DNA of 64,000 nucleotides from Desulfobulbaceae bacterium (GCA_002868945.1 PKTX01000041.1:65407-129406); one strand, 5' to 3'. Positions 1,051 to 59,452 are shown, counted from the first letter of the stretch. Translations and numbers: made by a program. Notes: generated from the sequence alone by a model not told the origin.

Positions 1051-1255
1051 AGTGTCTGTCCAGAAATAGGTCATCCCGGAGTCTCGCAGGCTCACGTATC
1101 TGTTTGAGATCCAGGAGTGCGGAAAAAATAAGAAGAGCATCTATACGATATCGGAGTCTCCACTTCGTCTCGTTTACCTCCGAGCATTATTTTTGAGCAG
1201 GATGAGGTACGCGAGCGAAACGAGACTCCGAAATATCTAATTATTCAAGATGCCC
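1051..1255. mobile_element. MITE-like element, chimeric copy (A-type left end, B-type right end)
   Basis: The left end is AGTGTCTGTCCAGAAAT and the right end is ATTATTCAAGATGCCC. The interior aligns with the core of the 8003 copy plus extra CGGAGTCTC segments. The flanks are TTCC and ATTA, so there is no TSD. Confidence 0.7.
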
Positions 1256-1256
1256 A

Positions 1257-1916
1257 TTATTCTAAGTTCTTGCCGCAGTGTTTGCATTTAGCCGCCTTCT
1301 TCTTGACGATCTCCATACAGTCAGGGCATTCCTTCATGAAGTTTTTCTGCAAGAGCTCAACAATGGCCTGGTTGATCTGGTGCTCCAGGTTGGCATCCGT
1401 GTATTGCTGATTGCGCAGGGCGTCTATACAGGAAAGGTCGTTGAGGGGCACAAGCATGCGGCTCGCCTTCATCTTGTTGACCAGGCTGGATTTCTCGTCA
1501 AGGAGGATGCCCAGCACAGGGGTGAGGTTTTTCTCCTCGACGCAGGTGTTGAGCTGCTCAACCCACTCTTTTTCCTGATGATAGCGATGGTTGGCGGCCA
1601 TGATGACCTCAGGGTCAAGCACACTGCCGGTAAAGGCCATTTTGTTGCCCACCATCATTAATTCGCCCTTCTCTTCGTTGGCCAGACGCATATAGCGATA
1701 GGAGCCGACATGGCCGTATGATTCTTCGATGTGCTGCCAGCCATTGACAAAGGGCGGACATTCATCGTTGAGACAGACAAACATTACCTCGGCCCCCCAG
1801 CCCAGGCCATCGCCGATATGGAAGGGTGGTGTCTCGCAGGGGGAGAGCCGGGTGTTGCAGTGGGGGCAGTAGAACTCCATTTTACAGTAACGCATACAAT
1901 CATCAGCGCTGAGCAT
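1257..1916 (-). CDS. Hypothetical protein with N- and C-terminal zinc-ribbon motifs
   Basis: 219-aa ORF with CPHC...C...C at the N-terminus and CPDC...CKHC at the C-terminus. No family was recognised. The start could be a later Met (MEFYCPHC). Confidence 0.7.
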   Translation of the reverse strand: MLSADDCMRYCKMEFYCPHCNTRLSPCETPPFHIGDGLGWGAEVMFVCLNDECPPFVNGWQHIEESYGHVGSYRYMRLANEEKGELMMVGNKMAFTGSVLDPEVIMAANHRYHQEKEWVEQLNTCVEEKNLTPVLGILLDEKSSLVNKMKASRMLVPLNDLSCIDALRNQQYTDANLEHQINQAIVELLQKNFMKECPDCMEIVKKKAAKCKHCGKNLE

Positions 1917-2208
1917 GAATACATCTCCTCATTGTAGACCTATGTTGAGCCAGGTCTTTGATATTACAAGATATCTCGAGCAATTTTCTCTTGGCCATCC
2001 AAAACACCCCACAGCTTGTATCCTCTTCGGCAGGACAAAAAGCGGCGCTGGAGTTTAAGGCGAAAGTAGATTTACAGTAAGCATTGTTACTTACTTGATC
2101 AAGGTGAGAATGGCAAGATCGGTCTGGCGGAGGGGAGGGGGGAAGATCTGGGCAAGGGGCAGAGTTTTTGGCGTGTAACCGATGGAAAAGGCGCTTACGG
2201 GATGTGCT

Positions 2209-2577
2209 TCAGGCATGGCCGCGACTGTTTGCCGCCATGAAAGAGACCAACTGTTCTCCTTGTCGGCTGGTCAGGTTGATAAATTCCAGTCCTGCCGTTC
2301 GGGTGAAGAGGTTGAGGCGGGGGTTAAAGGGGGAGGCATCATGCACCGAGACAACACGGCACGGCAAATCTTCGACAAAATGGTTGCCGGCCTTGTTGAG
2401 GATGGCTATCTCAAAGGCATCTGGGAAGGCTTCGGTGGGCCGCAGAATATATTTGACACGCAGGCCGCCCAGGCTCATATTGATGACCTGGCCAAAACGT
2501 GCGCTGTTAAGGACGATGGTGTCCGGGGCAGCGCTAAAGCGTTGATATCGGCGACGTTCCGGGTCTGTATGTATCAT
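2209..2577 (-). CDS. PilZ domain protein
   Basis: RRYQR (RxxxR) and NMSLGG ((D/N)xSxxG) motifs are present. The start was chosen at Met28 of track ORF 2209..2658, where GGGGA lies about 10 nt upstream. Confidence 0.7.
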   Translation of the reverse strand: MIHTDPERRRYQRFSAAPDTIVLNSARFGQVINMSLGGLRVKYILRPTEAFPDAFEIAILNKAGNHFVEDLPCRVVSVHDASPFNPRLNLFTRTAGLEFINLTSRQGEQLVSFMAANSRGHA

Positions 2578-2687
2578 TTTTATGTTCCCCATAAGAGGCG
2601 CTCGGCGCAAGAAGATTGTTGGGAAAGTGTAGGGTGTATCTCCCCTGAAAGCAACCAAAAAAATGAGAATTATATTGTCCGGTTTTT

Positions 2688-3230
2688 TTGCAAATGCTAG
2701 GAATGCAGCAGTTCGGCCTTCTTGTGAGCCGTATCAATCAAGGTGATGGAGGTGATTTCGGTCGTTGGCTTTTTGAGCCGGGTATGGCCTTCGGTGATAT
2801 GGTGTCGTGGTGGCGACCAGCCCCGGCCAGACGCGCTGTTGCCCATGAGGGGGTTGATTTTTACCGTTATGAAGATCGGTATGGTCGGCACCAGTATATG
2901 GCCGACCGCCTGGTGCCCGCCCCCTGCAGATGTCGTATTGTTGCCGTCTGTGATGATTTTCTGGGGCGCTCTCTCTTCCTCGTGCCGCAGCAGCCTGTCG
3001 CAGAAGGGCAGATCTTTGTTTTCGGCCACATAACGCCTTTGGTGGAGATCGGCCGGCAGGTGCAGGCAGGTGATGTGGTTGGCCGGGTCACTACGCCGCA
3101 GGGGCGTGTGCCCGGTCATTTGCACGTCTCGTGCCTGCAAGGTGACTGGCGTCATCTGCCGCAGCAACTGAGCTGGCCGACACTGCTGGCCGAGCCGGGC
3201 CTGCGCTTTGTTCGGCCCTTTGCCGCATAA
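2688..3230 (+). CDS. Putative M23/LytM-like metallopeptidase-fold protein
   Basis: HEGVD (HxxxD) and HLHVS (HxH) motifs occur in the M23 order. The start is ambiguous (TTG 2688, ATG 2694 or ATG 2703). Confidence 0.5.
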   Translation: MQMLGMQQFGLLVSRINQGDGGDFGRWLFEPGMAFGDMVSWWRPAPARRAVAHEGVDFYRYEDRYGRHQYMADRLVPAPCRCRIVAVCDDFLGRSLFLVPQQPVAEGQIFVFGHITPLVEIGRQVQAGDVVGRVTTPQGRVPGHLHVSCLQGDWRHLPQQLSWPTLLAEPGLRFVRPFAA

Positions 3231-3287
3231 AGGCGCCGGAATTCTGAATTCTCGGTGAACCAGACGTTTGCAACGGCTTTTAACTCG

Positions 3288-3343
3288 CATAATGTCGAAT
3301 AATTATCTCAACCCGGAAAGTTGAATCTAATGGTTCAAGATAC
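3288..3343. repeat. Degenerate ends-only remnant of the B-type MITE
   Basis: ATGTCGAATAATTATC ... TAATGGTTCAAGATACCC resembles the B-type ends, with 2 mismatches each. No TSD was seen. Confidence 0.3.
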
Positions 3344-3866: not shown

Positions 3867-3908
3867 ACGGCACGGGGAAGGGTGCCATGCCGTCCGGGGT
3901 GCCGGAGT

Positions 3909-5720
3909 CTACTGGTGGGCAGCCAATTCAGCCTCCTTTCTTTCCAGTTCGTCCCAGCGCTGGTAGAGCGCTTCCACTTTTTCCTGGCAACAGTCGAGCT
4001 CTCGGCACCAATGAGCCAACCTGTCGGCATCGGCCATGATCTCCGGCGCGGCAACATTCTGCTGGCAGGCCGCCAGTTCCTGCTCCGCCTCGGCGATCAT
4101 CTCCTCCATGTTGTCGAGCTCCTGCTGTTCGCGGTAGGAAAGTTTTTTCCTTGTGAGTTGCTTTTTCTTTCTGGCGGTCGGCGCCGGCGCGGCTTTGGTG
4201 GGCCTGCTTTTTTCCAGGTCAGCCAGCCATTGCCGGTAGTCGCTGTAGAGGGCGGCCTTGCCGCCCTGGTCGCTGAAGCCGATGATCTGGGTGGTAATGG
4301 TGTCCAGAAAGGCCCGATCATGACTCACCAGGACCAGGGCGCCGGGAAAGTCGAGCAGACTCTCCTCCAAAACGGCAATGGAGTTGATGTCAAGGTCATT
4401 GGTGGGTTCGTCCAGCAGGAGGATGTCTGCCGCGCTCAGCATGAAACGGGCAATGAGGATGCGGGCCTGTTCGCCCCCTGACAGGCGGGAGACCGGCATC
4501 TCCAGCTGGTCCGGCTGAAAGAGGAAGCGCTTGGCCCAGCCGGCCACATGGATGCTGCGGCCCTGGTAAGTGACGCTGTCGCCGTCCGGGGCCAGGGCCC
4601 GGCGCAGGCTCTGATTAAGGTCAAGCTCCTGGCGTTTCTGGTCAAAGAAGGAGATTTGGACGCCGTCGGCCCGACTGATCGTGCCGGTATCGCAGTCCAG
4701 GCTGCCATGGATGATCTGCATCAATGTGGTCTTGCCGCAGCCGTTGTTGCCGGCCAGGCCCAGGCGGACGCCGGGACCGAGCTCGAAGGAGAGATCGTTG
4801 AAGAGGGTGGTATCACCCATTTTTTTGCTGATGTGGCGGGCACTGAACAGTTTCTTGGTCTTGCGACCGGTGCCGATCACATCAAGTGCCGGGGCTTGTT
4901 CGACCTGGTTGCGTTGACGAACCTGGGAGAGTTCGTCCTGGAGACGATGGGCCTCGTTAATACGGAAGCGGGCCTTGGTGCTACGGGCCTTGGGGCCGCG
5001 CCGTAACCATTCCACCTCCCTTCTCACCTTGTTGGCCAGGCTGGCCTCCATGGCCTGCTGCTGGTTGAGAAAGTCTCGGCGCTTTTCCAGAAAATTGCTG
5101 TAATTGCCCTGAAAACCGAGGTAGCCCTGTGGGTAACAGCGGTTGAGTTCAACAATATGAGTGCAGACGTTTTCAAGGAAAAGACGGTCATGGCTGACCA
5201 GCACAAAGGCAAAGCGCGCCTCGCGCAGTATCTTTTCCAGCCAGAGAATCGAGCGGATATCAAGATGGTTGGTGGGCTCGTCAAGCAGGAGGAGGTCGGG
5301 CTCCCGGGCCAGGGCGCAGGCAATGGCCAGTCGTTTAAGCCAGCCCCCGGAGAGAGACGCCACCCGGGCCTCGGTATCGGCGAATTCCGCCTGGCTCAGG
5401 ATCATCTGGGCGGTGAGCATCTGCTGCTCCTCGTCACGATCACTGATGGCGGCCGTGACGACTTCAGTAACACTTTTGTCCGCATCAAAACTGTGGTTTT
5501 GGCTGAGATGGACGACCCGGGTATGCTTGCCGGCAAAGATCTGACCCTGATCGGCCTCCTGATTGCCGGCTAAAATGGCAAGCAGGGTCGATTTGCCGGA
5601 GCCGTTCGGACCGATAAGACCGGTTTTGCTTTTGGCCTCAAAGCTCAGGGATATATCGCGAAAAAGGGTATGGGCACCAAAGGACTTGCTGATATTCTGG
5701 CAGCTGAGAAGTGGAGGCAT
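3909..5720 (-). CDS. ABC-F family ATPase (Uup-like)
   Basis: Two ABC cassettes are present (GPNGSGKST and GNNGCGKTT Walker A; LSGG signatures), with no transmembrane segments and a C-terminal coiled coil. Confidence 0.9.
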   Translation of the reverse strand: MPPLLSCQNISKSFGAHTLFRDISLSFEAKSKTGLIGPNGSGKSTLLAILAGNQEADQGQIFAGKHTRVVHLSQNHSFDADKSVTEVVTAAISDRDEEQQMLTAQMILSQAEFADTEARVASLSGGWLKRLAIACALAREPDLLLLDEPTNHLDIRSILWLEKILREARFAFVLVSHDRLFLENVCTHIVELNRCYPQGYLGFQGNYSNFLEKRRDFLNQQQAMEASLANKVRREVEWLRRGPKARSTKARFRINEAHRLQDELSQVRQRNQVEQAPALDVIGTGRKTKKLFSARHISKKMGDTTLFNDLSFELGPGVRLGLAGNNGCGKTTLMQIIHGSLDCDTGTISRADGVQISFFDQKRQELDLNQSLRRALAPDGDSVTYQGRSIHVAGWAKRFLFQPDQLEMPVSRLSGGEQARILIARFMLSAADILLLDEPTNDLDINSIAVLEESLLDFPGALVLVSHDRAFLDTITTQIIGFSDQGGKAALYSDYRQWLADLEKSRPTKAAPAPTARKKKQLTRKKLSYREQQELDNMEEMIAEAEQELAACQQNVAAPEIMADADRLAHWCRELDCCQEKVEALYQRWDELERKEAELAAHQ

Positions 5721-5751: not shown

Positions 5752-5942
5752 GGCCATCTTGAATAATTGCTCTTTCGGAGTCGGGCAGGCTCGCTTGCCT
5801 GCCCGATTCTTTCGTCGCTCCGAAAATAAAAATCTTCACATATGCTCGATATGTTGGGTGCCCGTGGGGCGGGGAAAGGAGCCTGCTAGACTCCGCAATG
5901 ACCTCTTGCCGAACAGGCATTATCTCATTATTCAAGATACCC
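5752..5942. mobile_element. MITE-like element, B-type ends
   Basis: The ends are GGCCATCTTGAATAAT and ATTATTCAAGATACCC. The element is flanked by direct TAAT repeats (5748-5751 and 5943-5946). The core contains TTCGGAGTC and GAAAATAAAAA motifs. Confidence 0.85.
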
Positions 5943-6139: not shown

Positions 6140-6679
6140 ATGGCAGAATCAACAGTTACCATTGATACCATTGCAAGTATGCTGGCCCTGGCCGCCAAGA
6201 AAACCCTGGAAAAAAGTACCAAGAAAAAAATCAAGTATTCGACCACCCTTATTGCCGTGCCCAAGGTCTGCCTGAAACCGGACCTGGGCAGTTTTGTACA
6301 ATTTTCCGGCGATTATAACGGGCTGGTGGTGATGAATTTTACCACGGAAGCAGCCCTTGACCTCTATCGCAACTACATGCTTTCCATGGGACTGCCCGAG
6401 GATGAGCTGGCCAAGGAGGCCACCTCAAGTGAGGTGGTTGATACCATAGGTGAACTCACTAATCAGATCATGGGGCGGGCCATGCAGATGGTGGAGGCCA
6501 AGTTTGATCTGACCTCCTATTTTGGTCAACCCAAGGCCCTGGCCTTAAACAGCGCCATTGCCCTGACCCCTGATCTTGATTACCAGGATAACCGTCGCAT
6601 TGCCCTGAGTGTTGCCAACAACCGTTTTCATATTGAGCTGGCACTGGAGAAGGTCGAATTTATCAGCTCCGCCCTGTAG
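6140..6679 (+). CDS. CheX-like protein
   Basis: 179 aa. The pattern FSGDYNGLVVMNF...GELTNQIMGRA resembles the CheX fold signature (GE..N.i.G). Family assignment is tentative. Confidence 0.55.
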   Translation: MAESTVTIDTIASMLALAAKKTLEKSTKKKIKYSTTLIAVPKVCLKPDLGSFVQFSGDYNGLVVMNFTTEAALDLYRNYMLSMGLPEDELAKEATSSEVVDTIGELTNQIMGRAMQMVEAKFDLTSYFGQPKALALNSAIALTPDLDYQDNRRIALSVANNRFHIELALEKVEFISSAL

Positions 6680-6829: not shown

Positions 6830-6898
6830 GGGTCTCTTGAATAATGAGATATCTCGGTGCCTTTCTGTGCGCACGCCGTGCTCTTGTACAAGATGAGC
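6830..6898. repeat. Truncated or decayed B-type MITE remnant
   Basis: The left end GGGTCTCTTGAATAATGAGATATCTCGG is good. The right end CTTGTACAAGATGAGC is weak. No TSD was seen. Confidence 0.35.
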
Positions 6899-7039: not shown

Positions 7040-7990
7040 ATGGCAGGATGTGGTGGCGGCTCCAGCTGTGATAGTGGCAGCTGCGGATCGGTTGATGCAG
7101 GTATCGCCCAGCAGGATATGGCAATTTCCGCCTCCCTGGGTCGAATTAAGAATAAACTATTGGTGATGAGCGGCAAGGGTGGCGTCGGCAAGTCCACCGT
7201 GTCGGTTAATCTTGCCCTGGGCCTTGCCAATCGCGGCTACAAGGTGGGCTTGATGGATGTTGATCTGCACGGTCCGGATATCTGCCGCATGCTCAACCTG
7301 ACCGAGCGGTTGATGGATGCCAAGATCAATAAGGATGGTTTGTTGCCGCCCATGATGTACGGTGATAATCTCAAGGTTATCTCCCTGGAATACATGATGG
7401 AGAATCGCGATGATCCCGTTATCTGGCGTGGTCCCTTGAAGGTCCAGGCCATTCGGCAGTTTATCGCCGATCTGGACTGGGGTGACCTGGACTACCTGAT
7501 CATTGATGCGCCTCCCGGTACCGGTGATGAGCCCCTGTCCGTGGCCCAGAACATCAAGGATGCCCGGGCCATTGTGGTCACTACTCCCCAGGAGGTTGCC
7601 TTGGCCGATGTGCGCAAATCCCTCAACTTCTGCAAGCATGTCAAGATGGATGTGGTGGGCATGGTGGAGAATATGAGCGGCTTTGTCTGTCCGCACTGTA
7701 ATAATACGGTGGAGATATTCAAGAGTGGCGGCGGCGAGAAGACGGCCAAGGATTTCGGCCTCAACTTCCTGGGCAAGATTCCGGTGGACCCCAAGGTGGT
7801 GGTCGGCGGTGATGACGGTGCCCCCTATCTCAGTTCCACGTCCGAGAGTCCGGCCACGCAGGCCTTTTACCAGGTTGTTGATAATGTCGAAAAGGTCTGT
7901 GCCAAGCAAAAGGTCAGCCTGGCCATGGCGGAGAGTGCTTCCAGCTGTGGTTGCGGCGGCAGCTGCAACCCGGATACCTGCGACTGCTGA
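7040..7990 (+). CDS. Mrp/ApbC/NBP35-family Fe-S cluster carrier ATPase
   Basis: Deviant Walker A SGKGGVGKST and a CPHC motif are present. A GAGGAGG RBS precedes the start. Cys-rich tails occur at both ends (MAGCGGGSSCDSGSCGS... and ...SSCGCGGSCNPDTCDC). Confidence 0.9.
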   Translation: MAGCGGGSSCDSGSCGSVDAGIAQQDMAISASLGRIKNKLLVMSGKGGVGKSTVSVNLALGLANRGYKVGLMDVDLHGPDICRMLNLTERLMDAKINKDGLLPPMMYGDNLKVISLEYMMENRDDPVIWRGPLKVQAIRQFIADLDWGDLDYLIIDAPPGTGDEPLSVAQNIKDARAIVVTTPQEVALADVRKSLNFCKHVKMDVVGMVENMSGFVCPHCNNTVEIFKSGGGEKTAKDFGLNFLGKIPVDPKVVVGGDDGAPYLSSTSESPATQAFYQVVDNVEKVCAKQKVSLAMAESASSCGCGGSCNPDTCDC

Positions 7991-8002: not shown

Positions 8003-8169
8003 AGTGCCTGTCCAGAAATGGCCCTCTCGGAGTCTCGTAAACTCGCTTACCGGCCCGATCTCGGTGTCATGCTCAAAAAATAATGCTCGGAATATCGAAT
8101 ATATGCCTGCGCTTATTTTTCTCGCAGTCCTTGATCTCGAACGAAATGACCTATTTCTGGACAGGCACT
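8003..8169. mobile_element. MITE-like element, A-type ends
   Basis: A perfect 17-bp TIR (AGTGCCTGTCCAGAAAT / ATTTCTGGACAGGCACT) is flanked by direct AACG repeats (7999-8002 and 8170-8173). It begins 13 nt after the Mrp stop codon. Confidence 0.9.
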
Positions 8170-18952: not shown

Positions 18953-19150
18953 AGTGGCTGTCCGGAAATGGCCCTTTTGCCCGATCTCTGTGTCGCTACG
19001 GAAAATAAAAAAAGGCTCACATATGCTCAATATGCTGCAGCCCAAGGGCACCCGGAGTGTCGCCGGCTCCCTTGCCTCTTTCAGGGCGCGCTTTTTATTT
19101 TCCCATGCTCCTTGATCTTGAACAAAATGACTCATTTCTGGACAGGCATT
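18953..19150. mobile_element. MITE-like element, A-type ends
   Basis: The ends AGTGGCTGTCCGGAAAT and ATTTCTGGACAGGCATT match at 14 of 17 positions. The element is flanked by direct AACA repeats (18949-18952 and 19151-19154). Its core is nearly identical to that of the 20284 copy. Confidence 0.88.
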
Positions 19151-20283: not shown

Positions 20284-20500
20284 GGGTATCTTGAATAATT
20301 AGATATTTCGGAGTCTCGCTCCGCTCGCTTACCTGTTCGAGTTCAAGAAGCATAGAAAATAAAAAGCGCGCCCTGAAAGAGGTAAGGGAGCCGGCGACAC
20401 TCCGGGTGCCCTTGGGGTGCAGCATATTAATGATATGTGAGTATTTTTATTTTTGTAGCGACGAAGAAATCGGGCAAAATGGCAATTATTCAAGATACCC
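20284..20500. mobile_element. MITE-like element, B-type ends
   Basis: A perfect 17-bp TIR (GGGTATCTTGAATAATT / AATTATTCAAGATACCC) is flanked by direct TTAC repeats (20280-20283 and 20501-20504). Confidence 0.9.
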
Positions 20501-20598
20501 TTACGCCCTGGCAACAAAATTCCCTCTTCCTGAGGGAGGGGGGATCCGGCACCACACGGTGCGCACCAGCACGACGACACCATGATCAATCAACACCT

Positions 20599-20712
20599 CC
20601 GCCGGGCACGCAGCATATCGGGCATATGTGAGTTTTGTTTTCGTGGCAACGAAAAAGTCGGTCAGGTCAGCGAGCCTGCGAGACTCCGAAACAGAAATTA
20701 TTCAAGATGGCC
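20599..20712. repeat. Half copy of the MITE family (one B-type end only)
   Basis: It aligns from the central GGGCAC...CATATGTGAG core through CGAGACTCCGAA to ATTATTCAAGATGGCC. No opposite end was found. Confidence 0.55.
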
Positions 20713-20723
20713 ATAAATAAGAG

Positions 20724-20763
20724 AAGGCCCCGGCAGCAGCATACGCTTGCCGGGGCCTTTTTG
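20724..20763. terminator. Hairpin terminator (bidirectional)
   Basis: The AAGGCCCCGGCA ... TGCCGGGGCCTT stem is followed by a T-run and lies downstream of the minus-strand DUF89 gene. Confidence 0.5.
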
Positions 20764-20829
20764 CTCGGTACCATGACGGAGGCGATAGGGCGCTGCCGCC
20801 CGACAGGTCCGGCCTGGTCGGCGCTCGGC

Positions 20830-27298: not shown

Positions 27299-27343
27299 GG
27301 TTATCTTGAATAATTGCTATATATCTAATTACTCAAGACACCC
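27299..27343. mobile_element. 45-bp ends-only mini-element of the B-type MITE
   Basis: GGTTATCTTGAATAATTGC TATATAT CTAATTACTCAAGACACCC is flanked by direct TGAA repeats (27295-27298 and 27344-27347). Confidence 0.75.
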
Positions 27344-30309: not shown

Positions 30310-30324
30310 GTACCATACGAAATT

Positions 30325-30380: not shown

Positions 30381-30409
30381 AATGCATAAGGGCTTAATTG
30401 GCAAAGGAA

Positions 30410-31654: not shown

Positions 31655-31657
31655 GTC

Positions 31658-33289: not shown

Positions 33290-33318
33290 AGCTTACCAGC
33301 TGTCAGGAAGAGGTTGTC

Positions 33319-37255: not shown

Positions 37256-37264
37256 TCTCTTCCT

Positions 37265-39000: not shown

Positions 39001-39066
39001 AAAAGGTCACCTGAAGGGCTGGAAGTGTGTGGGCCGCCTTTGTGTAGTGGCGCCGGGAAAAGGGCT

Positions 39067-39666
39067 CTAAAAGTTGGCGGGCGGCCGGCCGGAGCCATCA
39101 ATATTATCCGTATAGTCGCGGTCATCGTTAATATAGAAGATTGCGCCGATCACCTTACCGTTTGCATCCCGTTCATCCCCAGGATAGTAGGCCCAGCCGG
39201 TGGATTCACTGGCAATACGTGCCGGATTGGTGGCCTCGGCCAGGGAGCGGTCGGCAACACCGGCCGGTCGATCAGCCATGCCTGAGGTCATGTTGGGCAG
39301 ATTGACGCCAGGCAGGGCCTCGTCCGGCACATTGGAGTAATCATTGGAGCGCACCAGGCGCAGATTGCGCAGGGGCTCGGGCCGGGTGGCCAGTACCAGG
39401 GCATTGCGCCGTACCTCTTCCAGGGTGGGCCAGTCCGGGTTATCGCCCGTGGGGCCTGTATTGACGCCGGAGAGCAGGATCTTGGCATGGGCCAGTTCAA
39501 TGCCACCGCGGATGGCGGCCAGTTTGCCTTTTGTGGCAGCGATCTTGGCCTCCTTCTGCATGTCAAGATAATAGGGGATGGCCATGGAGGAGAGCAGGCC
39601 GAGGAGAATGATGACTATGATCATCTCTATGAGGGTGAAACCTCGATCATCGTGGTACAGCTGCAT
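39067..39666 (-). CDS. Type IV pilin / GspG-like pseudopilin
   Basis: MQLYHDDRG/FTLIEMIIVIILLGLLSSMAIPYY prepilin N-terminus, followed by a GspG-like EAKIAATKGKLAAIRGGIELA helix. Confidence 0.8.
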   Translation of the reverse strand: MQLYHDDRGFTLIEMIIVIILLGLLSSMAIPYYLDMQKEAKIAATKGKLAAIRGGIELAHAKILLSGVNTGPTGDNPDWPTLEEVRRNALVLATRPEPLRNLRLVRSNDYSNVPDEALPGVNLPNMTSGMADRPAGVADRSLAEATNPARIASESTGWAYYPGDERDANGKVIGAIFYINDDRDYTDNIDGSGRPPANF

Positions 39667-39758
39667 AGTGCCCCCTTCCAGCTTGGTGGAGTGTGCCTAA
39701 CGTCTTTTAAGTTGGTAAAAATTAAGCACTTTATATCATATTTGTCGAAGAGTCTAAA

Positions 39759-39920
39759 GGCCATCTTGAATAATTGCTCTTTCAGAGTCTGGCAGGCTCG
39801 TTTACCTGGCCGATTTTTTCGTCGCTCCGAAAATAAAAATGCTCAGATCTGCTCGATATGCTTACCTGCCCGTAGGAGATGAGGGAGCCTGCGACACTCC
39901 GAATTATTTCATTGTTGACC
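39759..39920. mobile_element. MITE-like element, B-type left end and decayed right end
   Basis: GGCCATCTTGAATAATTGC and a core that aligns closely to the 5752 copy up to GACACTCCG. The right end AATTATTTCATTGTTGACC is diverged, and no TSD was seen. Confidence 0.7.
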
Positions 39921-39957
39921 ATAGCCTCATGGCCAGTTGCTTGGCAAAAAGTTGTGG

Positions 39958-40473
39958 CTACCGGCTGTATCTGACCTCGATGATGCGACTGACCGTGGCC
40001 CGTGTTGCCGTGGCGCGGATCTTCAGGATATCACCGGCCGGATCAAGGGGGGACGGGCCCACAAGGGTGGTGGTTATATTGTTGATGGTGGGCGTCGCGG
40101 ACCAGCCCGCCGGCCAGTTGCCGCCGCCGTCATCTTCGAGGATGCGCAGCTGGGTCACCGATTCGGCGGCATAGAGGGCCTGGGCCCAGAGATAATCCTC
40201 GGCCGAGGCCTGGGAGGAGATCATGGTATAACGACCAATGAGCACTCCGAACATGGCCACCACCACGATGATAAAGAGGGCGGCAATAAGGCCGATGCCG
40301 TCTTGATTTTGCAGAACCTTACCAGCCCGTTGAAAAACTACTACGCTTACTGACGCGTCGTCAAAATTCGGCTCAAAATGCTCATTTACCCCATGTAAAC
40401 TGTGCTTTTTCGCCTCATTTTTCCTAGCCTCAGTTTCGCTCGCTACCTTTTTCAACGGGCTGTTACGGAACAT
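39958..40473 (-). CDS. PilX/MshP-like minor pilus protein carrying an in-frame MITE insertion
   Basis: The hydrophobic segment QNQDGIGLIAALFIIVVVAMFGVLI has a PilX-type N-terminus. Codons 4-51 after ATG 40473 are contributed by the 140-bp element plus its TSD. Confidence 0.6.
   Translation of the reverse strand: MFRNSPLKKVASETEARKNEAKKHSLHGVNEHFEPNFDDASVSVVVFQRAGKVLQNQDGIGLIAALFIIVVVAMFGVLIGRYTMISSQASAEDYLWAQALYAAESVTQLRILEDDGGGNWPAGWSATPTINNITTTLVGPSPLDPAGDILKIRATATRATVSRIIEVRYSR
40323..40462. mobile_element. MITE-like element, C-type ends
   Basis: A perfect 15-bp TIR (CAGCCCGTTGAAAAA / TTTTTCAACGGGCTG) is flanked by direct TTAC repeats (40319-40322 and 40463-40466). The core shares GGTAGCGAGCGAAAC and other segments with the A- and B-type copies. 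Confidence 0.9.
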
Positions 40474-41293
40474 TGCGCACCTGGATCTCTTTATGGAAGT
40501 CAAGGGTGATGCCATTTCTGTCCAGGGTGAAATTCACCCGGACCATGGCGTTTCTGGTCAGGCTGGCCGGGGTGAATGTAAAGCTGAGGCTGCCGGGCTG
40601 GATATTGGTGAGAAGCGGATAGGCCGTGGCGCTGTCAAGTGCGGCTGTCAGATCGTTACTGGTGGTGACTGTTGCCTGGCTGCGAGACAGGATGCCTGAG
40701 GAGCTGTCGTAATCGTAGCGGATCACTCCCTGCACCGGATAATAGCGTTTGGTGACCGAGTGGCCGCCGATGATGGCTGTACCCAGGTCCATATTGTTGC
40801 CGACTACCTGGGTGACTTGATAAACCTTGCGGTTGCTGATTGACGAAAAGTCATTCCAACGGGTGTTATAAATAGATATGAGCGTATTGAGCGGCAGTGT
40901 ATTGGTGGAGAGGTCCCTGATCCTGGTGGTGGTGCCCACCGGTTGATACAGGCCGGCCAGGCCGTTTGCTGACAGGGCATTGTCATCGATGATGCCGAAG
41001 TTGATGGTTGTTGTCGATGAGGTATCAACGGCATTGGGGACCATATGATGGATCTCGCGTTCCATGCGCATCAGGGCCAGTTTGCCCTCCTCAAAGAGCT
41101 CCATGGCGGTGTCTGTCTCGGCAAAACCCTTGAAGCTGGTGGTGATAACCTCGCTGCCCAGCACCCCTATGATGCCCAGCAGAAGAATGACGGTGATCAG
41201 CTCGATCAGGGTAAAGCCGTGCTCCTTTCTCCTGTCTGACAGGCTGCGACGATACTCGTGGTGGCCGGCAAGGGGACGCCGCTGTCGCTCCAT
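40463..41293 (-). CDS. MshO-like minor prepilin
   Basis: KEHG/FTLIELITVILLLGIIGVLG prepilin motif. The start is ATG 41293 or ATG 41332, giving a 26- or 39-aa leader. Confidence 0.7.
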   Translation of the reverse strand: MERQRRPLAGHHEYRRSLSDRRKEHGFTLIELITVILLLGIIGVLGSEVITTSFKGFAETDTAMELFEEGKLALMRMEREIHHMVPNAVDTSSTTTINFGIIDDNALSANGLAGLYQPVGTTTRIRDLSTNTLPLNTLISIYNTRWNDFSSISNRKVYQVTQVVGNNMDLGTAIIGGHSVTKRYYPVQGVIRYDYDSSSGILSRSQATVTTSNDLTAALDSATAYPLLTNIQPGSLSFTFTPASLTRNAMVRVNFTLDRNGITLDFHKEIQVRNVP

Positions 41294-41319
41294 GGGCGTT
41301 CCGGTGCCATGCCTGTCTC

Positions 41320-41964
41320 TTAAAAATTGCATGTCACCGCCACCAGTTCAAAGGTTTCGCCAAGGGGAGAGGCAACCGTGACAATGATGCGCTTGCTGTC
41401 CGTGGCATTGGCCGCCAGGCTGCCGGCCGAGGCGGTGTCTGCATCAATGGTGAGCTCATTGCTGGCTATATAATCGATACTGACCTGACGGCTGAAATCT
41501 GTCCAGGACCCGGTAAGGGGCGCACCATCCTGATCGTAAAAGGTGTTGCCGGGGCCGCCCGGTTCGGCCAGGCCGTTATAGTCATCCACATCATCCCACT
41601 GGTCGCGGTTGTGGGGGCCGCCGGCCTCGCCATCGAGGCCGAGGGTGGAGGCGTTTCGGGTCGGTTCCGGACAGATGAGGGTATAGGTACTGTTGCCGCG
41701 GCCGGTGCCGCTTTCAGTGCTGCAGATCGGTCCACCGCCATTGGGGGTGTTCTCGTCCCAGCGTTTTGCCAGGATCTCATCCATCATGGCCTGGCCCAGG
41801 CCAATGGCTCGTTCCCGCAGCAGGGGATCAGGGCTGTGGGTCACTGCGCTGAAATAGGGGATGATGATCATGACGGCCACAGCCATGATCATCATGGTGA
41901 TGATCAGCTCTATAAGAGTGAAGCCGCCCTTGTGATGAGGCGTTGCCGTACGTATCATGGGCAT
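41320..41964 (-). CDS. MshD-like minor prepilin
   Basis: HHKGG/FTLIELIITMMIMAVAV prepilin motif. Confidence 0.7.
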   Translation of the reverse strand: MPMIRTATPHHKGGFTLIELIITMMIMAVAVMIIIPYFSAVTHSPDPLLRERAIGLGQAMMDEILAKRWDENTPNGGGPICSTESGTGRGNSTYTLICPEPTRNASTLGLDGEAGGPHNRDQWDDVDDYNGLAEPGGPGNTFYDQDGAPLTGSWTDFSRQVSIDYIASNELTIDADTASAGSLAANATDSKRIIVTVASPLGETFELVAVTCNF

Positions 41965-42473
41965 GTGGCGCCCTCCATGACATAGCCGGTCTGCAGGCAG
42001 ACGGTGAGGTGCTCGCTGCCGGCAATGGTGTATGTCAAGCCGTTGGCGGGAGCGCTGAGGGGCTGTTCGTAATCGGGGGCTGCCGGATCCGCCGTAATGG
42101 GTACGCCCAGGCCGTTAAACCAGAGACCGTCCCCGGCAGTGGGATCGCTGATGGGAATGGTGCCCTCGGCCAGCAGGGCGCGGTTGGTGAAGTCCGCCCC
42201 GGCGTTTTCACCACCGCCGCGCCGGCCAATGGTGTAGGTGGTGGCACTCACGGAAATACCCCAGGCCGTGCTGCCGCCGACAAAACTCCTGGTCATGGCC
42301 TGATGCTGGGCATAACGGATGGCCCGCTTAAACTCCTTGATGGCCGCTTCTTCCTGCATGTCACCCGGCCATTTGGCAGTGGCCGCCACTGCAATAATGC
42401 CGAGCAGAACGATAATGGTGAGTAGTTCAATCAGGGTGAAACCATGTCGGTTGACGAAGTGCCGGGCCATCAT
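41955..42473 (-). CDS. MshC-like minor prepilin
   Basis: MMARHFVNRHG/FTLIELLTIIVLLGIIAVAA. ATG 42473 overlaps the MshQ-like stop (ATGA). Confidence 0.7.
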   Translation of the reverse strand: MMARHFVNRHGFTLIELLTIIVLLGIIAVAATAKWPGDMQEEAAIKEFKRAIRYAQHQAMTRSFVGGSTAWGISVSATTYTIGRRGGGENAGADFTNRALLAEGTIPISDPTAGDGLWFNGLGVPITADPAAPDYEQPLSAPANGLTYTIAGSEHLTVCLQTGYVMEGATCP

Positions 42474-45400
42474 TGCACCACCTCCCGCCAGTTGATGATC
42501 CGGTCGTTGCCACGGTAGATGCCGAAGGTGAACTCCCCACAGGTGAGGTCCGGAGCGCTGCAGTCCGTCTCGCTGAGCCACACTGGAGCGGTGAGGCAGA
42601 CATCAAGCTGTTCGCCTGCCGTGCCGGTGGTGGTGACGGTCAAGGTGGCCCGGCCAGCCGCCAGTGGGTCCGGGTCGATGTTGGTCACCCGTCCGGCCGA
42701 TGGTGCCGAGCAGAAGGCGAGACCGGTGGTACAGTGGTCATCGCTGTTAATACTCCAAGTAGTGCCGTCATAGTAGTGCGCCTCAAAGGGAGAGGCGGTG
42801 ATGTCCTCGGTCTCGGGGCCGAAGTTGTTAAAGATTTGGATTCTGCCGTGTCGCAAGTTGGTGCCGGTGATGCCGGCCTGGCTGAAGCCCTGACAGCCTG
42901 AGCCGGTATCGTGGCAAACCGAGTCGGCATCGGTGAGTTGGAGGGCGTTGATGGCCAGATCAACACTGGCGGCAAAGGGTGCCAGCGGGCTGAGTATGGC
43001 CGGGCGCGCGTAGGTAATGGTGTCGGTAAGGGTGAGTTGGACAGTGCCGTTACAGTCGCTGGTGTCGCCGGTCGCAGGATTGACCGTGCCGGCGGTCGGA
43101 CTCAGACCAAGGCTGTTACCTGATGAGTCTGTGTAGGAGTAGGCCAGGTTCATGGGGGTGGCAAATTTCCAGAAAGCGCCGCAATCGTAATTGCGGGTGA
43201 TGGCCGGCGTGGGTGCGCCGTTCATGGCGCTTATGGTAATAATGGGCGGTGTGGCAAAGGGAAAGGGCTCACCCAGATAGCTGTAATTGCCTACCACGCA
43301 GGCATCGGTGAAAGTGGGAGGGGCCGGGTTGATGCTGACGACAAAATGGTCGGGCCGAAAGCGGCCGATATAGGGTGAACAGAGCTCCATCGGCTCACCC
43401 AGGAAGCCGCCGCTGACGTTCTCATTCAACTGCACGATACCAACTTCGGGATAAGCGCTATCATTGACGGTAACACTCGCGTCGGCGGCGGCAAAGGTTA
43501 CATCACCACTGGCGTAGCTCAAGCCGGGATCATTAGCGGCGGCGGGCAGTACCAGGGCGGCGGCTGGTTGGCCGATGTTCCAGGCCGGCACCCGGGCCAA
43601 AGGGAGGCCGGGGTCGGTTAAGGTTGAGCTGCCGCAATCGTCCCACACTCCGTCGCTGTCGGAATCCCGCCCCGCTGTCCAGCGCAGGCTTGTGAAGGTA
43701 AGGGAAAAGGCCTCGCCCGCCTTCTTGAACACGCCACCGTCGGCGTCCTGCGCCTTGGGATTGCCGGCGGCATCGGCAAAGAGGGCCAGGGGGCGGACGA
43801 CAAAATCGTTACTGGTGTCAGTGGCAGGGATGGTGTCGCCGGTGGGGACCCCGGCGGCGTCGGTGACCGGGATGTCGAGGTCAATGCGCAGGCTGTAGCG
43901 GCCCGCATCCGTCCAGGTGGAGTTGAACGGGGCGGTACCGTTGCCGTCAAAGGCCAGCTCCACGGTGGCGCCGTTGCCGGCGCTGCTCAGATCCGCACTG
44001 GTGTTGCCGGCGATGGTGATGGTGTTGTCAGCCAGCCCTTGGTCTGCTATCGGTACCAGATACTGGAACGTGGCATCAAGGGTCTCGTTGCTGACTCCGG
44101 CAATGCAGGCACCTGTCTGGTCGTCCGTGCGCACCACCCGAATCCGCTGCAGGAGCGCGGGGCTCGGCGGCGCTACATTGGAGGGCTTACCGGCGATCTG
44201 GGTAGTGAAGGGGCTCGCGGCGTCAGCGTCGTTGTCGTTGCCATCGATGAGCACCCCCACTTCGGAAAAAAACAGCTGACAAGCAGCGCCACCCCCATTG
44301 TTGAGGCATATCGTGTCGTTGTCCGCTATGGGTGAGGTGGCCACGGCAGCAAGGGTAATCGTTTCCGCCGTGGTATGGTGTAAATCGACGGTGGTGGAGC
44401 CACCGTCGAAGGTGACAGGGTCTGGACTCCAGCCCGAGACTGGGGAAGTCAGATCAACAGTCACTTCGCCGGTGTAGGTCACAGTGCAGTCGGCGTCGGC
44501 GCAGGCCAGGATGGTAACCCTCTCGGCCATGCAGGTGATGCCCGTGCCGTCGTGTTCAAGACGGATGTGATCCAGTGGGGTGCTTGGGCCGCCGCAGAAG
44601 CCGCGATGGTCGACGTTTTCCACGGCGGAAGCGTCGTAGGCAAGTTCGCCGAGCCAGAGAATGTCGCCGCCTGCAGCGATGGTCCCTGTGGCGTTTAGGT
44701 TGTTGGTGGTCACGTCACCGGTGGTGTAGATCAGCGCATTGAGGGTTCCGCTGTTGCCGTTGTTAAAGGTGAGGTTGTCGTAGCCGACAATGAGCAGGTC
44801 TTCCGGGGCTCCATCCTTGTTGACATCGGCATGCCAACTGAATTCCACGTCATTGCCGATGAACAACCGTGCCGTGCCGCTGCCGACCACCTCGATAACG
44901 TTGCGGCTGCTGTTGAACTCCAGGTTCTCGATCCAGTAATCTACCCCGCCGCGCAGTACCAGCTCGTCGCGCCAGTTGAGCCTGAGCGTCCGGATTCGAT
45001 AGACCTGTTGCGCGCCGCCGTCACTGATGGTGCCGTGTCCGCCGCCGGTGATGTCGCGGTAGTCGCTGACGCCGCCGCTGCCCAGGGTGTAGTCCTCTTG
45101 CCAGCCGAGGCTGATGTCGGTGTTCCCGCTACTGTGTTGAAAGGAGGGCATTTCAGGCTGGGCGGCGGGGAAACCGGAGGCGGTGCAGTCGCTGCTACCA
45201 CAGGTGTCAGCGCCCCAAGGGTTGAAATCGATGGTGTTGGCGGTTTCCAGGATATTATCGGGGTCACTCACCTGGGCATTCCAACCAAACTCGATGGTAC
45301 CCGCCGCTGTGCTGTTCTGCAGGGCGCTGGGGAAGATGGCGGCGCAGCTCCCGGACTCCGGTGGCAGACAGCTACGGGCGCTGCCATCCCAGTTGAACCC

Positions 45401-46747
45401 GGCGGCCTGGTTGGCGTAACCCATTTGGATCTGGGCTGAGGAGAGGGGGGAAGCGAAGACCAGCACCTCGTCAATGGCCCCTTCAAAACGCCATCGAGCA
45501 GTTGATTCGCTGGAGCCATCAGGCTCGCCGCCTATTGCGGCAATGCCATTGTCAACGCCCCATGAACCGGTATAGGTGTCGGAGGCCACCATGTTCGCGT
45601 CCACATAGATGCGTCGTGTCTTGTTAACAGCATCATGCACTGCGGTGACAAAATGCCATTGGCCCTCCTGGATGACAACGCCGGTGTCGAGGATAATCGG
45701 ATTAACATTTCTGGAAAAAAAACGCAGCCTGCCATTGCCTCCATCGTTAAGACTGAAGGCGAAACCACCGCTGTTGTGTTGATCGTCCACGAAAATACGC
45801 TGGTCACCACCAAGGTTATCCGCCCGTATCCACGCTGAAATGGTGAAGCTTCCTTGGAGATTGGAGAACGATGGCGGTAAGGCGATGTAATCATCCATGC
45901 CATCTAAGGCAGCAGCCATACATATACCGCCGGTTTCTTCAGTTATATCCGTGGGGATAAGGCCGTTGACGGCAGTGCCATGGTGGTCGTTGCCGCTGCT
46001 GTCCTCCACCTCGCCTGCCGTACCATTCCAGGAAGCTTCATCCATTCTGAGATCGAGGAGGGCAGAGGGGGAGGCTTGAAAAAACAGGATGGCATCGCCG
46101 TTTGTTACGGAACTGGTATTGAAGGAATACTCCGTGTAGTCGGTGTCGGAAACTTCGATGCCGATGGTTGCGCTGGTGCCGTTGGTATTTCCGGCGCCGT
46201 ACTGGAATTTGATCTCGTTACTGGTTTCGTAAAGGATAATCTGAAAGGTGTAGCTGCCGGAATGTGAATAGTGCGGCACATTGATCCAGCTGGCCACAAA
46301 GATGCGATTTGGGGCGGTGCCCATTGTTTCATAGGTTACTGATCCGCCCCGGCTCGGCTCGAGGTCGTCCCAATAGCCGGCAATAACCCGATCTGCCGGG
46401 CTTGCTGAGCAGGGTCCTTGGCCAACATTGGTGATGGGCAGTGCTTCATTGGTGTAATCCTTGTGAAAACCCAGGTCGGTGCCAAGGTGCAGGGCGCCGT
46501 TACTCAAGATCCTGAGCTGGCTGTAGTCGGTCCCCGCAAAATTAAAGGTGAAGCCGATATTAACAAGTTGTTTGTCGTCGTCGGTGGGGTAACGCGTGCA
46601 GACCCCCTCCCAGGTGACATTGATCGGGGCCGATGCTTGCCAGGCGAAGGTGGCGGTATCATCATGGAAATAGGTCGCAGCCTGGGTGGGGCTCATATAT
46701 GGAAAAAGAAGGAAGCTCAACAGGGAAGCTATGAAAAGACGGGCCAT
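42470..46747 (-). CDS. mshQ: MshQ-like giant pilus-associated protein with a LamG/ConA-like domain
   Basis: About 1425 aa with a signal peptide (MARLFIASLLSFLLFPYMSPTQAA). A LamG-type segment (DDYIALP...FTISAWIR...GQWHFVTAV...IDEVLVF) is followed by long beta-rich repeats. ATG 46747 follows GAGGA, and the track start at TTG 46780 is less likely. Confidence 0.8.
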   Translation of the reverse strand: MARLFIASLLSFLLFPYMSPTQAATYFHDDTATFAWQASAPINVTWEGVCTRYPTDDDKQLVNIGFTFNFAGTDYSQLRILSNGALHLGTDLGFHKDYTNEALPITNVGQGPCSASPADRVIAGYWDDLEPSRGGSVTYETMGTAPNRIFVASWINVPHYSHSGSYTFQIILYETSNEIKFQYGAGNTNGTSATIGIEVSDTDYTEYSFNTSSVTNGDAILFFQASPSALLDLRMDEASWNGTAGEVEDSSGNDHHGTAVNGLIPTDITEETGGICMAAALDGMDDYIALPPSFSNLQGSFTISAWIRADNLGGDQRIFVDDQHNSGGFAFSLNDGGNGRLRFFSRNVNPIILDTGVVIQEGQWHFVTAVHDAVNKTRRIYVDANMVASDTYTGSWGVDNGIAAIGGEPDGSSESTARWRFEGAIDEVLVFASPLSSAQIQMGYANQAAGFNWDGSARSCLPPESGSCAAIFPSALQNSTAAGTIEFGWNAQVSDPDNILETANTIDFNPWGADTCGSSDCTASGFPAAQPEMPSFQHSSGNTDISLGWQEDYTLGSGGVSDYRDITGGGHGTISDGGAQQVYRIRTLRLNWRDELVLRGGVDYWIENLEFNSSRNVIEVVGSGTARLFIGNDVEFSWHADVNKDGAPEDLLIVGYDNLTFNNGNSGTLNALIYTTGDVTTNNLNATGTIAAGGDILWLGELAYDASAVENVDHRGFCGGPSTPLDHIRLEHDGTGITCMAERVTILACADADCTVTYTGEVTVDLTSPVSGWSPDPVTFDGGSTTVDLHHTTAETITLAAVATSPIADNDTICLNNGGGAACQLFFSEVGVLIDGNDNDADAASPFTTQIAGKPSNVAPPSPALLQRIRVVRTDDQTGACIAGVSNETLDATFQYLVPIADQGLADNTITIAGNTSADLSSAGNGATVELAFDGNGTAPFNSTWTDAGRYSLRIDLDIPVTDAAGVPTGDTIPATDTSNDFVVRPLALFADAAGNPKAQDADGGVFKKAGEAFSLTFTSLRWTAGRDSDSDGVWDDCGSSTLTDPGLPLARVPAWNIGQPAAALVLPAAANDPGLSYASGDVTFAAADASVTVNDSAYPEVGIVQLNENVSGGFLGEPMELCSPYIGRFRPDHFVVSINPAPPTFTDACVVGNYSYLGEPFPFATPPIITISAMNGAPTPAITRNYDCGAFWKFATPMNLAYSYTDSSGNSLGLSPTAGTVNPATGDTSDCNGTVQLTLTDTITYARPAILSPLAPFAASVDLAINALQLTDADSVCHDTGSGCQGFSQAGITGTNLRHGRIQIFNNFGPETEDITASPFEAHYYDGTTWSINSDDHCTTGLAFCSAPSAGRVTNIDPDPLAAGRATLTVTTTGTAGEQLDVCLTAPVWLSETDCSAPDLTCGEFTFGIYRGNDRIINWREVVQ

Positions 46748-46839
46748 GTGAAGAGTCCTCAAAAAAAACAGGCTGAACAAGCATCTCGGGAATCTACCGT
46801 ATCACAGTTAATGAAGTAGGTAAAGTTTTTGCACCATCG

Positions 46840-56279: not shown

Positions 56280-56460
56280 GGCAATCTTGAATGACCACCT
56301 GGTGTTCCGGTGAAGAAGCAAGGCCTGCCCGGTTTGCCGTGAGCCGGAAGGGCCTGCAGGCGCGGCGGTTATCAACGAGAAGGCATACGGAAAGCCTCGC
56401 CGCCATACTGCGAGCGCTTGCCGGAAAGGCCTCCTCCTGGCACCGGCCTGTTATTTTAGC
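56280..56460. repeat. Possible decayed B-type MITE copy upstream of dnaB
   Basis: The end GGCAATCTTGAATGAC is B-like, and GCCTGCCCGGTT resembles the core sequence GCCTGCCCGATT. The remainder is diverged and the right boundary is unclear. Confidence 0.25.
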
Positions 56461-58208: not shown

Positions 58209-58216
58209 GAAATCTC

Positions 58217-58456
58217 CTATGCCTGTGGGTTGCCGGCGTAGGGCAAGAGGGCGATCTGGCGGGCCCTTTTGATGGCCTCGGTCAACTGGCGCTGATGCTT
58301 GGCGCAGTTGCCGTAAATCCGACGCGGAATAATCTTGCCCCGTTCGGTCAGGAAGCTTTTCAGGGTTTTAACGTCCTTGTAATCGATGGTCAGTTCCTTG
58401 TCAGCGCAGAAGCGACAGACACGGCGGCGCTGAAAAATTCTTTTCTTTTTATTCAT
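58217..58456 (-). CDS. rpsR: 30S ribosomal protein S18
   Basis: [34 protein letters not shown]. Confidence 0.95.
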
Positions 58457-58506
58457 GGTCTTATCCTGGATGTGAAAATTCGATGCTAATGTTGGTGGGC
58501 GCGGCG

Positions 58507-58863
58507 TTATTCTTCCTCGTCGGAAGAGTCGCTGTCGTCATCCTGCTCGGCATAGGACTTGTCGCTTACCACAAAGTCCTTGTCGAGTTTGATGGTCATG
58601 TATTTTAAAACATTGTCATCGATCTTAAAGATACGTTCCATTTCGTCAACACCGGCACCGTTGCCGGAAAATACGGTGTAGACATAGTAGCCGGTAGGCT
58701 CCTTTTTAATAGGATAGGCCAGCTGTCTGAGGCCCCATTTGTCAACCTTGAGGATCTCGCCGCCTGCTGCAGTAATGATGTCGGCGGTTCTGTCGCTGAT
58801 GGCCGCAATGGTGTCTTCCGAGACATTGGGCCTGATAATAGAGATGGTTTCGTACTTTTCCAT
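58507..58863 (-). CDS. rpsF: 30S ribosomal protein S6
   Basis: [17 protein letters not shown]...[12 protein letters not shown], with an acidic C-terminal tail. Confidence 0.93.
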
Positions 58864-59284
58864 AGGTCCTCCTTATGGACTTAAGGCCCCCGAGGGGAGC
58901 AAGAAGGTGATACGTCTGGTTCGGATAACAGCTGTTGGGCGCGATCCAAACCCTGTCTGAATACAAAGCTTTCCTTGTTACCATGATGCCGCCTCTACTG
59001 TCAACGGTTTTTGGGGGACGGTAAGCGCTTTAGTGGCAAGAGCGGGACGCGGCTTTTTCTTTTCCAGGTGTCCTGAAAAAAAGTTAAGCAACCCCCTCTC
59101 TTTGCTGTATAGTAGGGATGAGCATACTTTCTCTGGTGTATGTCATCTTCATAATTTGATTGACATTTCTCCCGGTGCTGGAGTATGAACTTCCCCTTGC
59201 GCAACGTGGCGGCAACCTAAGAACCAATATGCCGCGCAAGTTATCTCTTGATAAAAAACATGGATCTCGCTGCCATGGTCCTTA

Positions 59285-59452
59285 GGGTATCTTGCATAAT
59301 GAGATATTTCGGAGTCTCGCAGGCTCGCTTGCCTGTTCGCTTTTGAAAAGCATGGAAAATAAACAGCGAAACATATCACGCCGAACGTGAGCAGTTTATT
59401 TTCGTTGCCACAAAAACAAAACGGACAAAGATAGCAATTATTCAAGATGCCT
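59285..59452. mobile_element. MITE-like element, B-type ends
   Basis: GGGTATCTTGCATAATGAG ... GCAATTATTCAAGATGCCT. The core carries TTCGGAGTCTCGCAGGCTCGCTTGCC and GAAAATAAA. The flanks are CTTA and TTAC, an imperfect TSD. Confidence 0.8.

Follow-up and report, generated by a model that had tools for sequence, protein, structure and literature searches.

MITE-like repeats with two end types and an embedded 24-nt module in a Desulfobulbaceae contig

The stretch of DNA analysed here, hereafter the window, comprises 64,000 nt (positions 65407-129406) of contig PKTX01000041.1, which is 159,691 bp long and belongs to the metagenome-assembled genome (MAG) of an uncultured organism labelled Desulfobulbaceae bacterium (GCA_002868945.1). 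Among its genes are an ABC-F gene (3909-5720, minus strand), a CheX gene (6140-6679, plus strand), an AAA ATPase gene, hemB, a pilus operon of the MSHA type (30410-46780) and a purM-like gene, and between such genes lie palindromic repeats of 45-217 bp without coding capacity. [quoted passage not shown] The dense MITE family as such is real and is of an already known sort.

Gene neighbourhoods were taken from gene calls with Pfam labels, supplemented with extra open reading frames (ORFs); family membership was decided by blastn and nhmmer self-searches of the window, and the copy counts cover ~82 kb of this genome, that is, the 64-kb window and 18 kb of flanking contig. The window sequence, repeats included, recurs in two other assemblies (three in total), and this identity means that the repeats are not an assembly artefact. 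Contigs of the same strain in JGI 3300007102 and ERZ794999 stop inside the element at 20284-20500, which is as expected for a multicopy repeat and consistent with a copy number high enough to break short-read assembly. Literature searches with the exact sequences of the ends and of X24, as well as a keyword search for MITEs in sulfate reducers, returned nothing relevant.

Terminal repeats, flanking duplications and the empty site

First of all, an intact copy of the main family consists of two end modules of ~22 bp around a long, imperfectly palindromic body. Two types of end occur in this family, end A being AGTGCCTGTCCAGAAAT followed by ~5 nt and end B being GGGTATCTTGAATAAT followed by ~6 nt; the terminal inverted repeats measure 17 bp in A, 16 bp in B and 15 bp in type C, which is found on one further element. 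The initial annotation had described 4-bp direct duplications beside the intact copies, and perfect ones do flank six elements of the window. A ends on both sides are found at 8003-8169 (duplication AACG), located 12 nt past the stop of gene 7040-7990 and having an X module only in its left arm, and at 18953-19150 (AACA), located between the AAA ATPase gene and hemB. B ends on both sides are found at 5752-5942 (TAAT), between the divergent ABC-F and CheX genes, and at 20284-20500 (TTAC), 55 nt past the hemB stop. The fifth is a minimal element of 45 bp (27299-27343; TGAA) composed of two B end modules and nothing else, and the sixth is the type C element (40323-40462), whose perfect 15-bp inverted repeat is CAGCCCGTTGAAAAA and whose duplication, TTAC, takes in the stop codon of the minus-strand gene lying upstream. 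A seventh perfect duplication, TCTA, flanks a B/B element just outside the window. Since the flanking 4-mers differ between elements, they are duplications and not element sequence, and a conserved target palindrome, raised earlier as a possible refutation, is ruled out. Moreover, the 45-bp copy, made of ends only and flanked by a duplication, indicates that ~22 bp per end suffices to be moved.

The repeats are not confined to this region, since duplication-flanked copies occur in other Desulfobulbaceae, in deltaproteobacterial genomes and in metagenomes. In another Desulfobulbaceae MAG as well as a Deltaproteobacteria one, B-type relatives carry the duplications TAAT, TGTA and TCTA, and A-type copies in metagenomes carry TATT, AAAT and ACCT. 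When genomes were scanned with the B pattern, five of the eight stretches obtained were true relatives (four in the Desulfobulbaceae MAG and one in the Deltaproteobacteria MAG); the stretches from Heimdallarchaeota, Thiothrix and 'Proteobacteria' were rejected as chance or coding repeats. An empty site, which the initial annotation had advised looking for in relatives, was also found: the intergenic region between the AAA ATPase gene and hemB is 325 bp long here versus 121 to ~195 bp in four syntenic relatives (hemB 88% identical), where element 18953-19150 is absent. In relatives, the same region (locus L041, 3880-4000; locus L045, 3806-4000) holds a variable palindromic minisatellite, (GGTAAAGAA)n then (TTCTCTAAC)n, which the window genome does not have.

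In summary, the elements are short and non-coding, and those of the A/B family are multicopy (type C is single-copy). Because they have terminal repeats, differing duplications of a fixed length of 4 bp, an empty orthologous site in relatives and a 45-bp copy made of ends only, the reading as MITE-like non-autonomous transposons, already proposed from the sequence, is well supported. A transposase acting in trans would bind the ends and integrate the element at a 4-bp staggered cut, from which the 4-bp duplications would arise.

The A/B family amounts to ten copies or remnants in the 64 kb, with one more B/B element in the 18-kb flank, and the unrelated type C to one element. All listed repeats had at first been placed in one family, and this stood for the ten copies or remnants (nine stretches, starting at 1051, 5752, 6830, 8003, 18953, 20284, 20594, 39759 and 59285, were joined as one family by self-search, the one at 6830 reaching to 6894). 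It did not stand for type C, nor for 56280-56460, which was rejected as a member, its only likeness being one 12-mer with 2 mismatches, with body similarity absent. The end motifs are far more frequent than chance would give: the B end combined with TCRGAGTC was counted 6 times versus 0.00 in shuffled sequence, CTGTCCRGAAAT 6 times versus 0.53, and ATCTTGAATAAT with at most 2 mismatches 19 times versus 3.06.

Among the other members, the B/B element 59285-59452 stands in a region of divergent promoters at 75 nt upstream of the purM-like gene, and its flanks share TTA, an imperfect 4-bp duplication. Element 39759-39926, inside the pilus operon, has a left B end, a degenerate right end and no clear duplication. 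The half element 20594-20712 retains the right arm and B end and is truncated at the centre, and the remnant 6830-6898 has a single recognisable B end (GGGTCTCTTGAATAATGAGATAT) and no duplication. The stretch 3288-3343, in a divergent promoter region, is a weak, degenerate short B-type remnant, each end of which has 2 mismatches to the 12-nt B motif and which was missed by blastn and nhmmer. According to the gene calls, all elements are intergenic: five stand 1-55 nt from a stop codon (1051, 8003, 18953, 20284 and 40323), three stand in divergent promoter regions (3288, 5752 and 59285), and the others are situated between co-oriented or convergent genes.

Type C matches only itself, both in the window and in all other sequence searched, and by eye it has degenerate X-like stretches beside its ends and no other likeness; judged by its sequence, it is an unrelated MITE of a separate family. 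In the public gene calls, a 46-aa ORF without a Pfam match (39782-39922) lies wholly within element 39759-39926, and a 171-aa gene (39958-40473) begins inside the type C element; both the ORF and the gene start are likely annotation artefacts of the repeats. In practice, such repeats break assemblies and mislead gene callers, with two spurious or extended calls here. Four adjacent pilin-like genes (N_methyl domain) contain 45-nt direct repeats (39598-39642, 41174-41218, 41881-41925 and 42399-42443), which are a paralogous coding repeat of the pilus operon and stand outside the MITE family. Perfect inverted repeats of 28 bp and 25 bp with A/T runs on either side, at 30322-30383 and 60648-60702, are probably bidirectional intrinsic terminators, unrelated to the MITEs.

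One body shared by two end types

The initial annotation had described one core carrying three types of terminal inverted repeat, of which the A and B part holds and the type C part, that element having no such body, does not. The best pair of bodies is formed by the A/A element 18953-19150 and the B/B element 20284-20500 in reverse orientation, with 88% identity over 149 nt (91% over 100 nt in another alignment), and the body of the same A/A element is 83% identical over 117 nt to that of the B/B element just outside the window; the bodies of two A/A elements of the window are only 80% identical, over 41 nt. That is to say, one body is common to end types A and B, and body similarity does not follow end type. 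The type-specific sequence stops at the T-run bounding the body.

Each end type exists in two versions that are distinguished by the inner bases, ..AATAAT-KAGATAT and ..AATAAT-TGCYMTT for B and ..GAAAT-RGGTCAT and ..GAAAT-GGCCCT for A, and such left and right versions are as expected for the two ends of a parent insertion sequence (IS). Ends A and B are identical at 8 of 16 positions and end variants in other genomes are closer still (AGCACCCGAACAAAAAT versus GGCCACCTTGAACAAT), so A and B are diverged homologues. Presumably each has its own transposase, the two enzymes being related; copies would recombine or undergo gene conversion with one another, which would keep the bodies similar, and only copies with matched working ends would multiply, by which the ends would stay distinct. 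The hybrid element 1051-1255 combines a left A end (AGTGTCTGTCCAGAAAT) with a right B end (..ATTATTCAAGATGCCC); it holds three X modules and has no duplication (flanks TTCC / ATTA), and it could be a by-product of such recombination between copies. Closely similar bodies with two internally matched end types in one genome are a natural system for studying transposase-partner switching of non-autonomous elements.

The shared body might instead be an independent palindromic element that was inserted separately into ends-only A and B mini-MITEs, the composites then being spread by end-specific transposases. An ends-only element does exist (27299-27343), the type-specific sequence stops exactly at the T/A-runs bounding the body, and in several genomes the body is found both between A ends and between B ends. 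However, the ends-only element is of type B and none of type A was seen, the junction between end module and body bears neither a duplication nor another signature, self-searches of the window yielded no free body without ends, and the 8/16 homology of the ends fits common descent of whole elements; we therefore regard separate insertion of the body as unlikely, and exchange of bodies between MITE copies is preferred.

The 24-nt module X24

The block TTCGGAGTCTCG / CGAGACTCCGAA, regarded in the initial annotation as part of the shared core, belongs to a separate, non-palindromic 24-nt module, X24 (CGGAGTCTCGCAGGCTCGCTTACC), which begins with TTCGGAGTCTCG and had been overlooked. X24 has its own insertion history, apart from that of the rest of the body. 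In the window X24 is found 13 times, always within A/B elements and with 1 to 4 or more mismatches to the consensus. The near-perfect copy at 59310-59333 (plus strand; CGGAGTCTCGCAGGCTCGCTTGCC, 1 mismatch to X24) is located in the left arm of 59285-59452; the other plus-strand copies are at 1077-1100, 1152-1178, 5776-5799, 8028-8051, 19053-19076, 20309-20333 and 39783-39806, and the minus-strand copies at 1206-1230, 5872-5895, 20381-20404, 20665-20688 and 39878-39901.

In pairwise alignments of the A-type family, alleles with and without X24 differ by an exact 24-nt indel, with flanks 90-99% identical and with neither duplication nor microhomology. Three sites are of this exact kind, CTTTT^TGCCCAAT, ATTTT^TGTTCAAG and GATAT^TCCGAGG; a fourth, GATCA^AGGCATGCG, concerns a 23-nt variant in reverse orientation, and a further site lies in the flanking contig. 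The same indel separates arms within the window, namely the left arm of 5752 from the right arm of 20284, the left arm of 8003 from the left arm of 18953, and the left arm of 20284 from the right arm of 18953. Its position is between a pyrimidine and TG or TC, at several different places in the body. Gene conversion by itself cannot produce precise indels at non-homologous sites, so a process of insertion (or excision) must be at work.

Metagenomes were then surveyed with CGGAGTCTCGCAGGCTCRC, taken from the original core block, which gave at least 120 loci. In 100 unique contexts of these loci, picked by the exact 19-mer, the seven bases that follow the pattern (TTACCTG) show 84-95% conservation, which drops sharply to background at both edges, and X24 is preceded by T or C in 96%. 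X24 recurs in many unrelated repeat families of sediment metagenomes: over 100 distinct contexts were found in metagenomes, at least 38 clusters of flanks can be told apart, and at least six other kinds of inverted-repeat ends carry X24, its usual place being 24-31 nt inside the terminus with the CGGAG end outward. X24 also occurs in tandem, in arrays with a 24-nt period and 2-5 units; the number of units varies among related loci, and a diverged unit, where there is one, usually stands at the greatest distance from the TG flank. In shorter and longer forms, the blocks CGGAGTCT and CGCTTACC are kept around a spacer of 1, 7-9 or 11 nt. PstB on one array-bearing contig is closest (81-84%) to proteins of Desulfatiglans, Syntrophobacteraceae and Deltaproteobacteria, from which it follows that X24 is not confined to Desulfobulbaceae; in IMG/VR it is absent.

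Some neighbours of X24 at these loci may be mentioned. A second repeat family, with ends of type GTAACTGCTCACAGGGCACC, occurs in L005 (~6290-6400), L011 (~4800-4990) and L043 (~5150-5330); in L011 it is nested within a B-type MITE, and in many metagenome loci it has X24 24-31 nt from its end. The arrays in L096 (171-266, minus strand), L126, L047 and L146 are flanked by ATTCC-N-GGAAT hairpins (GTCATTCCGGGCTTGACCCGGAATCCAG), which we take to resemble the dRS3 repeats of Neisseria. In L054, L166 and L059, an 8-nt tandem repeat (GGAGTAMT) runs directly downstream of the X24 array.

Tentatively, X24 (CGGAGTCT-spacer-CGCTTACC, with CGGAGTCTCGCAGGCTCGCTTACC as the main form) may be an undescribed kind of mobile DNA module of very small size (24 nt), neither palindromic nor coding, which would insert without duplication at Y^TG/TC, preferably in MITEs, and re-insert at the same site into arrays. 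It would be spread in trans across Desulfobacterota by an HUH-type single-stranded DNA transposase or by a reverse transcriptase acting on a short RNA template, and X24 and the recombination that goes with it would yield MITE families that share insides and differ in ends. If mobile in its own right, X24 would point to an unrecognised insertion mechanism in Desulfobacterota, and we know of no transposable unit that is anywhere near as small. As for the enzyme, E. coli RayT, IS5 InsH, IS30, the YkfC reverse transcriptase and the YagA integrase gave nothing as phmmer queries against ~0.7 Mb of related loci, all-against-all clustering of ORFs near X24 gave only ABC ATPases and a second common cluster, and no X24 pairs in outward orientation were found at IS distance.

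A more conservative reading is that X24 is immobile and constitutes a conserved site beside transposon ends that is bound by a host factor or by a protein accessory to transposition, and which different MITE families have kept or converged on and which X-minus alleles have lost by deletion. Its place 24-31 nt inside the terminus, in constant orientation in at least five end families, and the two 8-nt blocks CGGAGTCT and CGCTTACC conserved around a variable spacer are what such a site would show. Within a single family, however, X24 also stands elsewhere, at the centre or, in both orientations, near position 12 of the arm, and at these places the X-minus state is the majority; precise deletion is unlikely to arise spontaneously, as microhomology is missing beside the indel. 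The formation of tandem arrays, and the intact, duplication-flanked element 18953-19150 with no X24 beside either end, likewise speak against a binding site, which makes this alternative doubtful.

Two further identities were considered for X24. A sigma-54 promoter was rejected on inspection, the spacing from GG to GC being one base too long. The reverse complement of X24, G-GTAAGCG-AGCC.., resembles an inverted repeat of the IS66 family in its start and its size of 24 nt: IS66 repeats are 20-30 bp long and start with GTAAGCG (PMC11946415), and one published IS66 repeat is 24 bp long (PMC12888890). Unlike IS66 ends, X24 is single, without an 8-bp duplication and without a partner repeat at IS distance, and the likeness in sequence is taken as a lead only.

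Candidate transposase and comparison with known systems

The absence of a transposase from the window, reported in the initial annotation, is borne out: neither the Pfam labels on gene calls nor the extra ORFs reveal a transposase domain in the window or in the 18-kb flank. A full-length IS with identical ends, suggested there as a check, did not emerge from the window, the flank, ~0.7 Mb of related loci, IMG/VR and PLSDB. IS-sized pairs of A or B ends were absent from the window, flank and loci, where phmmer with IS5 InsH found nothing either; scans of IMG/VR for the two end types returned nothing but chance or coding matches without a partner repeat, and PLSDB plasmids gave no match.

Nevertheless, the ends themselves give an indication of the enzyme. 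In E. coli K-12, IS5 ends in GGAAGGTGCGAATAAG and GGAAGGTGCGAACAAG; like end B, these repeats are 16 bp long and start with GG, and GGAAGGTGCGAATAAG is identical to GGGTATCTTGAATAAT at 8 of 16 positions, among them the GAATAA block, which is in register. Insertion of IS5-group elements leaves 4-bp duplications, and the target preference of IS5 is YTAR. On the ground of these IS5-like ends (16 bp, GG start, GAATAA) and the 4-bp duplications, an IS5-like enzyme is the best guess, and the A/B elements are probably moved by an IS5-like DDE transposase. The IS5-like source, advanced speculatively in the initial annotation, is thus plausible by ends and duplication length, and is not by target site or by any parent IS found.

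Several points weigh against the overall reading of the repeats as trans-moved MITEs with exchanged bodies and a separate X24. No transposase or full-length IS with matching ends has been found in the sequence just listed, and the B-type duplications TAAT, TTAC, TGAA and TCTA, unlike those of IS5, do not fit YTAR. The copy count comes from ~82 kb of this genome and is not genome-wide, the relatives' empty intergenic regions are too diverged for base-level alignment, which makes the insertion point of 18953-19150 approximate, and gene conversion of the bodies is a step that we infer. Furthermore, the X24 copies of the window are conserved no better than the rest of the elements, with no visible constraint here, and selection by an exact 19-mer means that the metagenome survey overstates X24 conservation.

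The repeats could also be palindromes of the repetitive extragenic palindromic (REP) or bacterial interspersed mosaic element (BIME) type, handled by a REP-associated tyrosine transposase (RAYT; Y1/HUH) and not moved by a DDE enzyme. They are extragenic, palindromic, clustered and mosaic, and X24 inserts without duplication, as HUH enzymes do; being short, extragenic and sometimes arrayed, it is like REP/RAYT systems and the palindrome-associated transposable elements (PATEs) of IS200/IS605. For A, B and C elements, this is already contradicted by terminal repeats and 4-bp duplications, which REPs lack. As for X24, its predicted fold (-1.9 kcal/mol, z = 0.26) is not a significant hairpin or palindrome and GTAG is missing, which sets it apart from REPs; a search of the window and loci for RAYT homologues gave none, a weak test given that the gene could lie elsewhere in the genome. 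Handling by RAYT is accordingly very improbable.

Structured RNA genes or terminators under selection are hardly credible as an explanation: the predicted folds are strong (z = -3.2 to -6.7) and many elements stand just past stop codons, but good folding is to be expected of every long palindrome, the copies face either way with respect to neighbour genes, target duplications are present, the element is missing from the orthologous site in relatives, there is no Rfam match even at permissive thresholds, and ordinary terminators adjoin the elements without being replaced by them, such as the GC-rich hairpin with T-run at ~20722-20764 next to the half element 20594-20712. Rfam searches gave only two tRNAs at the gathering score and nothing meaningful at E up to 5, and X24 likewise matches no family. 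As to the terminator or promoter role that the initial annotation thought possible, terminator scans of the elements gave only weak terminator-like stems, and promoter consensus scans found sites within elements no more often than in shuffled sequence.

Among known systems, the non-autonomous transposon family of the window is closest to the MITEs Correia, Nezha, Chunjie and RUP, with which it shares small size, lack of coding capacity, terminal repeats, duplications, multiple copies, intergenic location, strong folds, and presence or absence between relatives. Correia elements duplicate TA. Identity with Chunjie of Geobacter, which has 21-bp repeats and 9-bp duplications (PMC3184786), was rejected, the A/B elements having 16-17-bp repeats and 4-bp duplications. 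As a MITE family of an uncultured sulfate-reducer lineage, it is ordinary. Beyond the usual picture, and unlike bacterial MITEs in general, are the two end types on one exchanged body and the embedded 24-nt module that recurs widely in Desulfobacterota metagenomes, and it is X24, rather than the two-ended body, that is the part worth following. In its modular construction, with an internal module of varying copy number (boxB in BOX, X24 arrays here), the family is like BOX of Streptococcus pneumoniae and BIME/NIME. BOX and BIME/NIME are without target duplications or transposon-type ends, whereas the whole unit here behaves as a MITE.

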